This document shows, piece by piece, positions 57,941-61,977 of a stretch of 64,000 nt of DNA. The position numbers and the translations under genes were made by a program. The stretch comes from an uncultured Planctomycetales bacterium (lineage in GTDB: Bacteria; Omnitrophota; Gorgyraeia; Gygaellales; Profunditerraquicolaceae): the NCBI GenBank assembly GCA_964645795.1, contig CAZYCL010000004.1, forward strand, positions 88,292 through 152,291, read 5' to 3'. Below the pieces are notes generated by a model that was not told the DNA's origin, searched no databases, and saw nothing but the letters and a program-made list of their open reading frames with translations. How positions within the stretch are numbered: the first letter of the stretch is position 1; each line of letters opens with the position of its first letter.

Positions 57941-58402
57941 ATGAAAAAATGTGCGGTAGTGTTGGGCGTGCTGGTTTTGGCCATTGCGGTTACGGGTTGC
58001 TCTAAGAATGACGATATGATGGGGGAACCGCCTGAGAATATGACCATGGATGAGTTGGGGGTTATCGGCAGCGATCAGAAGGCCCCCGGAGCACAGGCTG
58101 CGGCTTCAGCGCAAGGGGATCCGGCATCCGCACAGGAGATGCCCGCGGTCGCCCAGCCCGTGATTCCTGATCCGCAAGCAATGCCGATATCAGCCGGCGT
58201 GGGTTCGCCGCAAGAGATACAGGCAGCGCTAAAGAACGCCGGTTTTTACAGCGGCAAGATTGACGGTAAGATCGGGCCGATGACGAAGCAGGCGATTATC
58301 GAGTTCCAGAAAGCCAATAAGCTGAAAGCCGACGGAAAAGTGGGGCCCAGGACCTGGGAAGTTTTAAGCAGGCATCTGGGCGAGTCCGCTTCTTCGCGAT
58401 AG
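57941..58402 (+). CDS. lipoprotein with C-terminal peptidoglycan-binding (PG_binding_1) domain
   Basis: Lipobox LAIAVTGC and a C-terminal AALKNAGFYSGKIDGKIGPMTKQAIIEFQKANKLKADGKVGPRTWEVL repeat typical of PG-binding domain 1. Confidence 0.8.
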   Translation: MKKCAVVLGVLVLAIAVTGCSKNDDMMGEPPENMTMDELGVIGSDQKAPGAQAAASAQGDPASAQEMPAVAQPVIPDPQAMPISAGVGSPQEIQAALKNAGFYSGKIDGKIGPMTKQAIIEFQKANKLKADGKVGPRTWEVLSRHLGESASSR

Positions 58403-58448
58403 CGGCTTTACTTGAAAATATATAAATAATATAGTATAATTGTCTTAG

Positions 58449-58632
58449 CCGATAAAGGTAAACCTCTGCTTTAACAAGCAGACACGCCGCAAGCCCTGCG
58501 GCGCGCATTGAAAAATGGGGGCACAAAGCTACAGACCTAAGCCCGCCAGCTCCAGGGCGGGTATGGTGGCTGGGTTGCCGAGATAAAAGGAAGGGCAGAA
58601 GCTTATTCTGCTTGCCTTTATCGGCTTTTTAT
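58449..58632 (+). ncRNA. candidate ~185-nt structured small RNA (6S-RNA-like closed architecture; identity unconfirmed)
   Basis: ORF-free 360-bp gap. A 5' AGCCGATAAAGG pairs perfectly with a 3' CCTTTATCGGCT that is followed by TTTTT. Internal hairpins TCTGCTT-taac-AAGCAGA, CCCGCC-agctccag-GGCGGG and GCAGAA-gctta-TTCTGC. Confidence 0.35.
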
Positions 58633-58762
58633 CATATCCCAACAGACCCGGGTTGCCGGGATTGCCGCCAGAAATCCGGCGCCAATATTTTGTTGGGATT
58701 TTTTATTTTTCCTCCCACAAATTGTCTGTTCATTTAATTTCCTAAATGTTATAATAACGGTA

Positions 58763-59983
58763 ATGACAAGATTCCCGAACGGTTTTCTATGGGGGGCGGC
58801 GACAAGCGCCCATCAGGTCGAAGGCAATAATACCAATAGTGACTGGTGGGAATGGGAGCAGCGCGGGCTCCTGAAATATCCTTCCGGAGTATCCTGCCGC
58901 CAATATGAATTGTTCCGCCAGGATTTTGATTTGGCCGGCTCTCTTGGCCACAACGCTCACCGTTTTTCCGTGGAGTGGGCCCGCATCGAGCCCGCCGAAG
59001 GCCGTTACTCGGATATAGAGATCGATCATTACCGGCAGGTTGTTTCGGCATTAAGAGAGCGTGATTTAGAGCCGATCGTGACCCTGCATCATTTTACCAA
59101 TCCTGCATGGTTTCTTAAAAAAGGCGGCTGGGCTAACGCAGCCAGCGCAGACATCTTTCTGGGCTATGCCCGCAGGGTGATCGAGGCCCTGGCAGGGCAG
59201 GTTCGTTTCTGGGTTACCATAAACGAGCCGACGATTTATACATATTTTTCCTACCTGGAAGGAACCTGGCCTCCTCAGGTAAGATCCGTTTATAAGGCCT
59301 GGAAGGTCATGCGCAACATGCGGCGTGCCCATATCAAGGTTTACCGGTTCCTGCACAGCTATTATAAGGATAAAGGACTGGCGCCTCCCCTTGCAGGCGC
59401 GGCCAATAATATGCAGTTTTACCAGCCGTCACCCGATACGGCCCGGAACAGGTTCTGCGCTTATTTAAGGGACCGCCTGTTCAATCTCGGATTCACGAAA
59501 AAGCTCTTCAGGGCAGGCGCCCTTGACTATATCGGCCTTAATTACTACAGCAGGTGCCTGGTTGACGCAAGACGCTGGTCTTTAAAAAGCATGCTTACGG
59601 ATAACGGTTTTGACGGATCGGGCACCGTGAAAAAGAACTCTCTGGGTTGGGACATCTATCCGCAAGGCCTATACCGGGTGCTCATGGGGCTCAAACGCTT
59701 CGCAGTCCCGGTGCTGATACTTGAAAACGGCATCTGTACTCACGACGACGAGTTGCGCTGGGAGTTTATCCGGGAGCATCTGCAGCAGGCAGCCAGGGCC
59801 ATGCAGGAGGGAGTAAGGCTATTGGGTTATATTTACTGGTCATTGACGGACAACTTCGAATGGGACAAAGGCTTTGAGCCGCGTTTCGGGCTTATTGAGG
59901 TTGATTACGATACTTCAAAACGCACCGTCCGCGCCAGCTCCCGGAGTTTTTGCCGGGTCTGCCGGACTAATGAGCTGATATGA
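58763..59983 (+). CDS. glycoside hydrolase family 1 beta-glucosidase
   Basis: N-terminal FLWGAATSAHQVEGN, acid/base NEP (VTINEP) and nucleophile ENG (LILENGI) motifs. Confidence 0.9.
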   Translation: MTRFPNGFLWGAATSAHQVEGNNTNSDWWEWEQRGLLKYPSGVSCRQYELFRQDFDLAGSLGHNAHRFSVEWARIEPAEGRYSDIEIDHYRQVVSALRERDLEPIVTLHHFTNPAWFLKKGGWANAASADIFLGYARRVIEALAGQVRFWVTINEPTIYTYFSYLEGTWPPQVRSVYKAWKVMRNMRRAHIKVYRFLHSYYKDKGLAPPLAGAANNMQFYQPSPDTARNRFCAYLRDRLFNLGFTKKLFRAGALDYIGLNYYSRCLVDARRWSLKSMLTDNGFDGSGTVKKNSLGWDIYPQGLYRVLMGLKRFAVPVLILENGICTHDDELRWEFIREHLQQAARAMQEGVRLLGYIYWSLTDNFEWDKGFEPRFGLIEVDYDTSKRTVRASSRSFCRVCRTNELI

Positions 59984-61977
59984 TACCGCTGGATAAAGAC
60001 GCCATCCTCCAGGAAATACCCCTCTTTTCATCGCTTGCCGAATCCGAACGCGAGCTGGTCAAGGAGAGGATGCGGTTCGTCGAACATAAAAAAGGGGAGA
60101 TGGTCTATCGCGAGAACGACCCTCCTGATGCTTTTTATTGCCTGGTGCAGGGAAGGGTCGAGATCTACACTCAGGACGAAAACGGCAACAAGACTGTCCT
60201 CGAATACCTGCATCACGGCAAGTACTTCGGGATCATATCGCTGTTGACCAATGAACCCCACTCCGTCTCCGCGCAGGCGTTGAACGACTGCCTTACCCTT
60301 CTGATAAAGAAAGACGATTTTAACGTTCTGCTTAAAAGCATCCCGTCTCTTTCCATAGACCTCAGCCGCACTCTCTCCCGCCGCCTGAAAAGAAAAGACG
60401 TGCATCAGAAGAGGGTATTCGAGAGCACCATAATCTCCGTATTCAGCTCGTACTCTCAGGCCGGAAAGACCGTTTATGCGCTGAACCTCGCCATAAGCCT
60501 GAGCAATGAGACCCGTAAATCGGTGGTCATTCTTGATGTCGCTCCCCGCGACAAGGTCCATAGCCTGCCCCGCAGGCTCAAGGTCGAAGAGTACAGGGTG
60601 ATGGATCTTTCGGACAATGCCGCGGACAACGCCGCCGTGGTCAGGGATTACATCTGCCGCGACCGGTTCGGCATAGATATGGCTTGTTTTTCTTACGAAC
60701 CTCAGGATGACTCCTGCGTAAGCAGGCTGGTCGCTATCTTAAGCCTTCTGGTCAATGACTACCATTACCTTATCCTTGACCTGCCGTCGCTTTTGGACCG
60801 TCCGGTATACAGCATGCTCAACCAATCCGACCTCATCCATACCCTTACCAGCCCGGAACCGGTAGATTTAAGCCGCACCCATCAGCTGATCGAAAGGCTG
60901 AAAACCGAGTTCGGGTTCCATGAAGACAAGATAAAGATCATCATCAACGAGTATAAGTATTCCAAGCTTTCGCATGAAGAGCAGATGGAGCTTCTGGATT
61001 GCCAGGTATTCGCCACCCTTCCCAAGATCGACTTCGAAGCCCCGGATATCCTTATACTTGACGATCCGGCTTGCGAATACTCCAAGGTCATCAAGCGCAT
61101 AGCGCGCAGGATAGGGGATTGTCTTGTGGGGCTGGTGCTGGGAGTGGGGCTGGGTTACGGTTTCTGCCATATCGGGGTGCTCAAGGTCATAGAGGAGGAA
61201 AAGATCCCCATAGATGTCATCGCCGGCTCCAGCATCGGAGCGCTTATCGCCAGCCTCTGGGTCATCGGCAAGTCCAGCTCCGAGATACTCGAGATTACCA
61301 GCGAATTCAAAGAGCCCAAGCATATCTGGAATCTCATTGACCTTACTTTCCCGCGCCTTGGTTTTATCAAGGGCAACAAGCTTCACAGGTTCCTTAAGAA
61401 GCACCTGGGCAATAAGAGTTTTCATGACATAAAGCTGCCGCTTAAGATCATCGCCAGCGACTTAAAGAGGAAGGAGCCGAGGATCCTGGACAAGGGGTCG
61501 TTGGTCGATGCGATAATGGCCAGCTGCGCCATGCCGGGAGTATTTATGCCGATGAGGCAAAAAGAGGAGTTTCTCTTCGACGGAGGAGTGATCAATCCGT
61601 TGCCTACCGAGCCGTTATTCAGGATGGGCGTAAAAAAGATCATTGCCGTCAATGTCACCCCTTCACGCGAGGACATAATGCGTCAATATGAAAGGCTCAG
61701 GCAGCAGATGGGGGTAACCGAGAACGAGCGTCCGGGATGGAAGCAGCGCATAAAAAATATTTTCAAAAATAATATTGTGGATATAATATTCAGCAGCTTC
61801 GAGGTCCTTCAGTCCGAGGTGGCCGAAAAGGAGGGGCTGCTGGCCGATGTTGTGCTGCATCCGGATACCCACGGGCTTTATTGGCTGGAGCTGCATAAGG
61901 CAGCGGAGTTCTCCAGAAGGGGGGAAGACGAGGCGCGCAGGCAGATCGATAAGATAAAGCAGTTGGTAGAAGAGTGA
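59980..61977 (+). CDS. cyclic-nucleotide-binding domain / P-loop (MinD/CpaE-like) domain / patatin-like phospholipase fusion protein
   Basis: N-terminal cNMP-binding fold (FYCLVQGRVEIY...GKYFGIISLLTNEPHSVSAQAL). Central deviant P-loop (SSYSQAGKTVYALNLAISL). C-terminal patatin with oxyanion hole GVGLGYGF, GxSxG nucleophile AGSSIGA and catalytic DGG (FDGGVINPLP). Confidence 0.75.
   Translation: MIPLDKDAILQEIPLFSSLAESERELVKERMRFVEHKKGEMVYRENDPPDAFYCLVQGRVEIYTQDENGNKTVLEYLHHGKYFGIISLLTNEPHSVSAQALNDCLTLLIKKDDFNVLLKSIPSLSIDLSRTLSRRLKRKDVHQKRVFESTIISVFSSYSQAGKTVYALNLAISLSNETRKSVVILDVAPRDKVHSLPRRLKVEEYRVMDLSDNAADNAAVVRDYICRDRFGIDMACFSYEPQDDSCVSRLVAILSLLVNDYHYLILDLPSLLDRPVYSMLNQSDLIHTLTSPEPVDLSRTHQLIERLKTEFGFHEDKIKIIINEYKYSKLSHEEQMELLDCQVFATLPKIDFEAPDILILDDPACEYSKVIKRIARRIGDCLVGLVLGVGLGYGFCHIGVLKVIEEEKIPIDVIAGSSIGALIASLWVIGKSSSEILEITSEFKEPKHIWNLIDLTFPRLGFIKGNKLHRFLKKHLGNKSFHDIKLPLKIIASDLKRKEPRILDKGSLVDAIMASCAMPGVFMPMRQKEEFLFDGGVINPLPTEPLFRMGVKKIIAVNVTPSREDIMRQYERLRQQMGVTENERPGWKQRIKNIFKNNIVDIIFSSFEVLQSEVAEKEGLLADVVLHPDTHGLYWLELHKAAEFSRRGEDEARRQIDKIKQLVEE

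Follow-up and report, generated by a model that had tools for sequence, protein, structure and literature searches.

The stretch analysed here (the window) comprises 64,000 nucleotides (nt) of contig CAZYCL010000004.1 from an uncultured bacterium placed in the Omnitrophota, and the element under study lies in a 360-nt gap between the stop codon of a lipoprotein gene (58400-58402) and the ATG of a GH1 glycoside hydrolase gene (58763). The element was identified as an aptamer of the cyclic di-GMP (c-di-GMP)-I riboswitch class, and we describe its identity, the geometry of its promoter, and two alternative pairings together with their conservation. The first-pass annotation had seen a structured small RNA (sRNA) of about 185 nt in a gap free of open reading frames (ORFs). 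The length of the gap was correct, and two ORFs called mechanically lie inside it, one of 41 aa (TTG start, + strand) and one of 76 aa (- strand). The genes and principal features of the locus are listed below.

57941-58402, + strand: lipoprotein gene with a PG_binding_1 domain (Pfam PF01471, E = 1.6e-19)
58412-58440, + strand: sigma-70-type promoter, TTGAAA and TATAAT with a 17-nt spacer (11/12 consensus matches)
58447-58582, + strand: c-di-GMP-I (GEMM-I) aptamer (RF01051, 48.9 bits against a gathering score of 35)
58447-58458, + strand: strand a, the 5' arm of the long helix, made up of the P1 5' strand AGCCG (58447-51), J1/2 AUAAAG (58452-57) and G58458, which is G21
58615-58626, + strand: strand a*, the 3' arm CCUUUAUCGGCU, in which a*1 (CCUUUAU) is the part predicted to swap partners and a*2 (CGGCU) is the P1 3' strand
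58626-58630, + strand: U-run of 5 U at the terminator-like site T1 (helix arm plus U-run, 58615-58630)
58636-58710, + strand: terminator T, with stem AUCCCAACA/UGUUGGGAU, a 46-nt loop and the tail U6AU5 (inverted repeat and folding)
58747-58755, + strand: extended -10 element TGtTATAAT of a separate GH1 promoter, ending 7 nt before the ATG (read from the sequence)
58763-59983, + strand: GH1 glycoside hydrolase gene (Pfam PF00232, E = 1.4e-78)
59980-61977, + strand: cyclic nucleotide monophosphate (cNMP)-binding/patatin gene, whose start overlaps the GH1 stop (PF01734 and PF00027)

The Rfam scan of the whole window gave a single match at the gathering threshold, RF01051 at 58447-58582, which spans the full model (1-87 of 87) with E = 1.6e-6 for the 64-kb window; this identity had been missed in the first-pass annotation. 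A permissive scan of 58380-58780 at E <= 10 returned only RF01051 and STnc560, and the latter was rejected as a chance match. The equivalents of G20, A47, C92 and C93 are all present in the Rfam alignment, with G20 at G58457 in J1/2. A G rather than an A at position 20 would favour c-di-GMP over cyclic GMP-AMP as the ligand. The closing pair on P2 is G58458-C58524 (G21-C46), and U58459-A58523 is a compensated form of the C22-G45 pair of P2. The parts of the aptamer and the two elements that follow it are given here.

58463-58521, + strand: four-way-junction expansion of P2 (51-nt insert in the Rfam alignment)
58465-58482, + strand: first enclosed hairpin, part of the expanded P2
58485-58503, + strand: second enclosed hairpin, part of the expanded P2
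about 58506-58517, + strand: third enclosed hairpin, also of the expanded P2, with a GAAA loop at 58510-13
58525, + strand: A47 equivalent (Rfam alignment GACGCAAAgC / GGCACAAAGC)
58527-58576, + strand: P3 (Rfam alignment), carrying the 11-nt receptor CCUAAG 58536-41 / UAUGG 58562-66
58577-58581, + strand: proximal tail GCCGA, in which C58578 is C92 and C58579 is C93; also the 5' strand at the base of a local terminator hairpin
58582-58592, + strand: purine-rich decoy a'2, GAUAAAAGGAA, the alternative partner of CCUUU (P5) in constrained folds
58593-58613, + strand: P4 hairpin, with stem GGGCAGAA/UUCUGCUU and loop GCUUA (folding)

The four-way junction of P2 was common to seven homologues, with compensatory changes in 10 of its 19 pairs. 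At the sequence level a GNRA-type contact is provided for by the GAAA of the third P2 hairpin and by CCUAAG/UAUGG in P3, which we take to be an 11-nt GAAA-tetraloop receptor. The contiguous tail can supply only two pairs of P1, G58451-C58579 and C58450-G58580, and a P1 of 5 bp (AGCCG:CGGCU) requires the distal strand 58622-26.

Residue numbering and roles were taken from the contact table of 3IRW, the Vc2 structure (PMC5049679). In Vc2 the closing pair of P1 is G14-C93 and the ligand is touched by J1/2 (C15-G20) (PMC5049679), while A47 intercalates between the two guanines of the ligand (PMC5049679 Table 1). The window's aptamer shares with Vc2 (RF01051, 3IRW) the two-hairpin form, the residues G20, A47, C92 and C93, a G21-C46-type pair, and the tetraloop and receptor sequences. 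It differs in three respects: P2 is a four-way junction with the 51-nt insert, the contiguous P1 is only about 2 bp, and a distal strand past the decoy and hairpin pairs with the whole 5' end, thereby completing P1 or burying J1/2. The element is almost certainly a c-di-GMP-I aptamer, and as such it is a new member of a well-known riboswitch class with an unusual, nearly self-contained architecture. Judged by its sequence, the aptamer at 58447-58582 would be expected to bind c-di-GMP.

A likeness to 6S RNA, suggested in the first-pass annotation, did not hold. What fits 6S RNA is only the length of about 185 nt, the closing helix with its mutually paired 5' and 3' ends, and the U-run. No 6S model matched in 58380-58780 at E <= 10, no 6S family reached its gathering score anywhere in the 64-kb window, and RF01051 accounts for the whole region. 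In the minimum free energy (MFE) structure the closing helix surrounds a branched set of hairpins, and there is no rod with a large open-promoter-like bubble at its centre. At least three internal hairpins had been noted, and the roughly 156 nt enclosed by the helix contain five, namely the three of the P2 junction, P3 and P4. The probability that the element is 6S RNA or another rod-like sRNA that binds RNA polymerase is, in our estimate, close to nil.

Homologous loci were compared with the window; individual loci are referred to by number where needed (L001 and so on). The best relatives of the GH1 protein, at 52-59% identity, all came from metagenome-assembled genomes of Candidatus Omnitrophota. 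Rfam placed a c-di-GMP-I aptamer or its GGC variant just 5' of a GH1 orthologue in 12 loci, the high scorers reaching 70-82 bits and the maximum being 82. Visual inspection added three loci, and a metagenome scan with the motif CTTTATCGGC-N4-30-CCCAACA another four, which brought the set to 19 full members. Among the matches listed from that scan, four of 120 loci were real (L112, L131, L140 and L151) and almost all others listed were chance; in a scan of viral contigs with the 5' strand motif, all 34 matches were chance and lay inside coding DNA. A limited literature search on Omnitrophota riboswitches found nothing relevant.

The members share one order of elements. A peptidoglycan-binding (PG-binding) gene lies directly 5' of the RNA in 18 of the 19, followed by the promoter, (N)GCCGAUAAAGG, the aptamer with variable inserts, and the tail UUGCCGAA. 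After the tail come a purine-rich stretch, a hairpin of variable sequence, CCUUUAUCGGC, and a U/A-rich spacer of 9-23 nt; the series ends with a CCCAACA...UGUUGGG hairpin and U-run, usually TGnTATAAT, and the GH1 start codon. The RNA is co-oriented with and 5' of GH1 in 18/19 loci, and in L112 the next gene encodes a YdjM-like hydrolase instead. In L017, an insertion of about 450 nt with inverted ends separates T from the GH1 promoter. This insertion (about 2535-2990; terminal inverted repeats ...ATATTTTGTGGGGCC.../...CCACCCACAAAATAT...) looks like a miniature inverted-repeat transposable element. The best Rfam score of L017 (2353-2450) and L038 (2749-2852) was to the c-di-GMP-I-GGC variant, RF03167; both share the platform, and their A47 position still reads GCAAAGCC. 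L015 and L140 have an insert of about 80-90 nt just before the A47 position, between GGGGGCG and CAAAGCC, that is unlike the P2 junction insert of the window, and L015 scored 35.9 bits in Rfam.

The 12-bp perfect pairing at the centre of the first-pass annotation exists 2 nt upstream of where it had been placed, with AGCCGATAAAGG at 58447-58458 pairing with CCTTTATCGGCT at 58615-58626. No inverted repeat in the gap is longer than the one it forms, whose 15-nt arms are 93% complementary and separated by 150 nt. The U-run reported at its end was also found, as TTTTT at 58626-58630 right after the helix, and the first T of this run is still able to pair with A58447. The 190-nt stretch folded at -84.2 kcal/mol (z = -5.2), and none of 200 shuffles folded as well. 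Across the 19 loci GCCGAUAAAGG was invariant or nearly so, and CCUUUAUCGGC was conserved. In 18 distinct sequences the helix core has 11 pairs that are always paired, and the pairs flanking it covary, both the outermost (AU 5, GU 4, GC 2, UA 2, UG 2; paired in 15/18) and the innermost (CG 6, UA 4, UG 4; paired in 14/18). Slid controls gave a paired fraction of only 26-50%, and of the 19 loci folded, 18 had the helix in their MFE structure. With the helix kept in 18 other loci and covariation at its flanking pairs, the pairing is beyond chance.

The helix pairs J1/2, G21 and often the next base of P2 with CCUUUAU. Because it ties up J1/2, including the G20 that the ligand pocket needs, the full helix would be the ligand-free, anti-aptamer state. 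We take the conserved 12-bp pairing to be the expression-platform helix of the riboswitch. Its core is conserved in sequence and lacks covariation, probably because GCCGAUAAAGG and the tail-plus-decoy sequence GCCGAAGUAAAGG are near-identical: one 3' strand has to fit both partners, one of them with aptamer-invariant bases, and this would constrain its sequence.

The ligand-bound state was mimicked, crudely, by forcing J1/2 and the G-C92 tail (J3/1) to be single-stranded during folding. With the pocket forced open in this way, 14 of 16 loci moved CCUUU(A) to the purine-rich stretch, where it stacks on the variable hairpin, and kept GCCG:CGGC as a short P1. The swap partners in the window are 58586-90 and 58615-19. 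When the 5' strand was blocked, most loci formed one continuous local hairpin with GCCGA (containing C92/C93) and UCGGC at its base, which in the window are 58577-58581 and 58621-25, and the shape of this hairpin is that of a classical riboswitch terminator. The energies in the window were -84.2 kcal/mol for the rod, -70.8 with the pocket open, and -72.1 for the local hairpin. The local hairpin beat shuffled linkers with a mean z of -2.7 (19 loci), and at least five of the seven a*1 bases were locally paired in 17/19 loci. In most homologues the P4 position is occupied by a hairpin of unrelated sequence. From these models a two-state strand swap appears probable.

Several further features of the linker were recorded. 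In the window, CAAGCAGA at 58475-58482 (the 3' arm of the first P2 hairpin) is perfectly complementary to TCTGCTTG at 58607-58614 (the P4 3' arm), and GATAAAA of the decoy (58582-58588) is perfectly complementary to TTTTATC at 58627-58633, the U-run after the helix. The decoy often resembles a Shine-Dalgarno (SD) or CsrA site (AAGGAGG, AAGGAUG, GGGAUG), as in L002, L005, L006, L009, L016, L017, L022 and L112, and in the window at 58582-58595; CsrA-type GGA/GGAUG motifs occur in the linker of about half of the loci. A small ORF or leader peptide in the linker was considered and rejected. An AUG or GUG follows an SD-like tract in several loci, with differing frames and lengths, and the start codon is absent in the window, L013, L015 and L140.

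From the promoter upstream of the RNA a +1 is predicted at A58447, where the helix begins. Homologous loci keep TTGAAA-N16-17-TATACT, with the -10 element ending 6-9 nt (mostly 7-8) before GCCG. The earlier description of an independently terminated RNA was a fair one: a stand-alone RNA is predicted from the promoter at 58412-40, the +1 at 58447 on the first helix base, the helix and U-run of T1 at 58615-30, and T. A different origin for the RNA would be the 3' untranslated region (UTR) of the PG-binding gene, where binding of c-di-GMP would set how stable the upstream mRNA is, in the manner of Vc2, which acts on upstream RNA in Vibrio cholerae (bioRxiv 10.1101/617340). No terminator was found between the stop codon at 58402 and the aptamer, and the PG-binding gene adjoins the RNA in 18/19 members, including L112 with its different downstream gene. 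Against such an origin, the conserved, near-consensus promoter sets the +1 at the first paired base, and the covarying terminal pair includes the +1 base. This placement of the promoter and the covarying +1 pair speak for selection on the short independent RNA, and we consider a 3'-UTR element very unlikely.

Two terminator-like structures follow the aptamer. The helix and its U-run form the first (T1). As a family-wide regulated terminator T1 was rejected, since only 8/20 members have the U-run, which is thus a facultative feature. The second, T, includes a hairpin that the first-pass annotation had placed before the GH1 gene. That hairpin is real, but GCCGGGATT (58655-63) and AATCCGGC (58673-80) form only the inner part, within the T loop, of a larger hairpin at 58636-58699. 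The outer arms of T are ATCCCAACA (58636-44) and TGTTGGGAT (58691-99), followed by T6AT5, and the fold of 58636-58699 has an energy of -32.2 kcal/mol (z = -4.4). The T stem, (A)UCCCAACA...UGUUGGGA(U) or CCCAACA/UGUUGGG, does not vary across 23 Omnitrophota loci with GH1 proteins that each share no more than 52-59% identity with that of the window; among these loci are L001, L008 and L012, which have no riboswitch. A compensatory change, CCCAGCA/UGCUGGG, was found in L020. A DNA operator palindrome was rejected for T: the spacing of the arms varies from 3 to 53 nt, and together with the L020 compensation this favours an RNA hairpin. A generic repeat or terminator of the genome was also rejected, as T occurs only once in the 64-kb window. 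In six loci the T loop carries an insert of 41-53 nt that folds into two inner hairpins (58645-58690 in the window; L002, L007, L011, L022 and L038). The hairpin seen in the first-pass annotation is one of the two in the window, and in L002, L007 and L038 this insert repeats the CAACA/UGUUG stem motif.

The GH1 gene appears to have a promoter of its own. In 19 of 29 Omnitrophota loci a TATAAT ends 6-12 nt short of the GH1 start codon, 17 of them with a TG extension. The GH1 start in the window has no SD, and many other genes of the window have a SD of the GGAG type; with the -10 element so close to the ATG and no SD, the GH1 mRNA is predicted to be leaderless. L008 and L012 have a longer GH1 leader with GGAG instead. 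In 17 loci the T 3' arm TTGGGA is located 17-19 nt 5' of the GH1 -10 element and resembles a -35 element, so that terminator and promoter overlap. The gene overlapping the GH1 stop encodes a protein of 665 aa with cNMP-binding, CbiA/ParA-like and patatin phospholipase domains, and the cluster around the c-di-GMP RNA thus holds a second cyclic-nucleotide-sensing component. The lineage-specific platform and its leaderless neighbour appear to be an unusual combination, as far as sequence comparison and modelling indicate.

On balance we lean towards a c-di-GMP-I riboswitch with ligand-dependent read-through of T1 toward T and the GH1-patatin operon. The RNA would be transcribed from its own promoter, starting at A58447. 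Without ligand, the 5' end (AGCCG, AUAAAG with G20 in it, and the start of P2) would pair with CCUUUAUCGGCU in the global minimum-energy fold, and this helix next to the U-run would stop transcription at T1, giving a closed RNA of 184 nt. With c-di-GMP in the pocket, J1/2 and C92 would be free, and CCUUUAU would swap to the decoy at 58586-90, stacked on P4. Only a short P1 (AGCCG:CGGCU or less) would remain beside the U-run, and the helix would be weakened. More polymerases would then reach T at 58636-58710, a fraction of them would enter the GH1-patatin operon, and this read-through would add to transcription from the leaderless promoter of the operon itself. The contrast at T1 would be between 13 contiguous pairs, or the continuous local hairpin, and a P1 of 3-5 bp at a junction. 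Binding of the ligand, the way the switch turns and any consequence for GH1 are inferred. Ligand-dependent read-through at T1 in this window, as modelled, is somewhat doubtful when taken by itself, and a real effect on GH1 expression is unlikely.

A precedent is Bc1 of the Bacillus cereus group, a dual-terminator platform in which the first terminator unfolds with ligand and the second stays intact and masks the response (PMC11218506). The present RNA resembles Bc1 in its long platform with tandem terminator-like hairpins, and T here forms in both modelled states. Bc1 also controls a ribosome-binding site, whereas GH1 here lacks an SD and is preceded at its start codon by its own promoter; the description of Bc1 includes no 5'-3' closing helix of the anti-aptamer kind, and Bc1 comes from a different phylum.

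A number of observations weigh against this read-through mechanism. The a* strand beside the U-run was paired in every state modelled, so that an effect of the ligand on T1 would rest on helix length and folding kinetics, with no clear antiterminator. Only 8/20 loci had four or more U in a row no further than 2 nt from the helix (P about 0.04 against the composition of the spacer). T formed alike in the free and ligand-mimic folds of 18/18 loci, and by inspection no complementary segment that could act as an antiterminator for T was found. The GH1 -10 element is present with or without a riboswitch, and a riboswitch in a 5' UTR could not act on a leaderless transcript made from GH1's own promoter. 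In addition, L017 has its insertion before GH1, and L112 a different downstream gene.

Several of these observations also speak for the main rival, a self-contained c-di-GMP-sensing sRNA that always terminates and exerts no control in cis on GH1. The ligand would toggle it between a closed rod that exposes the purine-rich 58580-58592 and a compact bound fold that hides this strand, and the RNA would act through its stability or abundance, by titrating a factor or by buffering c-di-GMP, along lines proposed for the merRNA of Bdellovibrio and shown for sRNAs ending in Vc2. Consistent with such an RNA, T stands in both states without an antiterminator, a* is always paired, 19/29 loci have the leaderless-type GH1 promoter regardless of the riboswitch, and L017 has its insertion before GH1 and L112 a different downstream gene. 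The loci without a riboswitch keep the order of PG-binding gene, T, promoter and GH1, which makes the RNA look like an inserted module, and the +1 coincides with the terminal base of the helix, as in stable RNAs. Precedents are also available. The merRNA of Bdellovibrio likewise carries a c-di-GMP-I aptamer on a discrete non-coding RNA, for which its authors propose no classical cis regulation (PMC3627812). It is 445 nt long, massively expressed and without a conserved downstream ORF, whereas a co-oriented gene follows the present RNA in 18/19 loci, and a simple sponge would not be expected to have the anti-aptamer helix built into this RNA. The sRNAs of Vibrio cholerae that terminate in Vc2 also hold a c-di-GMP-I aptamer within a short RNA, which the ligand compacts and reportedly protects from degradation (bioRxiv 10.1101/617340). 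In those the aptamer is at the 3' end and the ends do not arise by termination; here the aptamer begins at the +1 and the end is formed by terminator-like hairpins.

Other findings fit a self-contained RNA less well. The anti-aptamer helix is 4-14 kcal/mol more stable than the ligand-competent fold, unlike what would be expected of a pure sponge, and nearly all characterised c-di-GMP-I members act in cis. No trans target was found: the exposed linker has no conserved pairing to the GH1 5' end, and this candidate was rejected with duplex energies generally no better than those of shuffles and sites that are not conserved. T must also be leaky in L001, since GH1 there lies after T without a promoter of its own. 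We therefore consider the self-contained sRNA a genuine competitor, though a doubtful one, to riboswitch-controlled read-through.

A wider form of the idea is that the Omnitrophota share a self-contained, always-terminated c-di-GMP sensor RNA and no classical 5'-UTR riboswitch. It includes a strand exchange that would hide or expose the purine-rich strand, with the 5' end sealed in the closing helix, and a T that in most species would also serve as -35 region for the leaderless GH1 promoter. All of this taken jointly is unlikely. Were it true, c-di-GMP would act through the abundance or conformation of an RNA, or through polymerase traffic at the overlap of terminator and promoter, and not by attenuation. 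The element bears on a question raised by merRNA, Bc1 and Vc2, whether some c-di-GMP-I riboswitches are discrete RNAs and not 5'-UTR attenuators. The 5'-3' anti-aptamer helix, the decoy, the terminator present in both modelled states and the leaderless-type downstream gene with its own promoter make this architecture a clean natural test case for that question; if it proved to be only an ordinary attenuator, the finding would be a routine annotation. For the lineage itself, the c-di-GMP-I class, known mainly from cultured phyla (Proteobacteria, Firmicutes), is found also in uncultured Omnitrophota, and it links c-di-GMP signalling to a conserved cluster of a PG-binding lipoprotein, a GH1 glycoside hydrolase and a cNMP-binding patatin protein.

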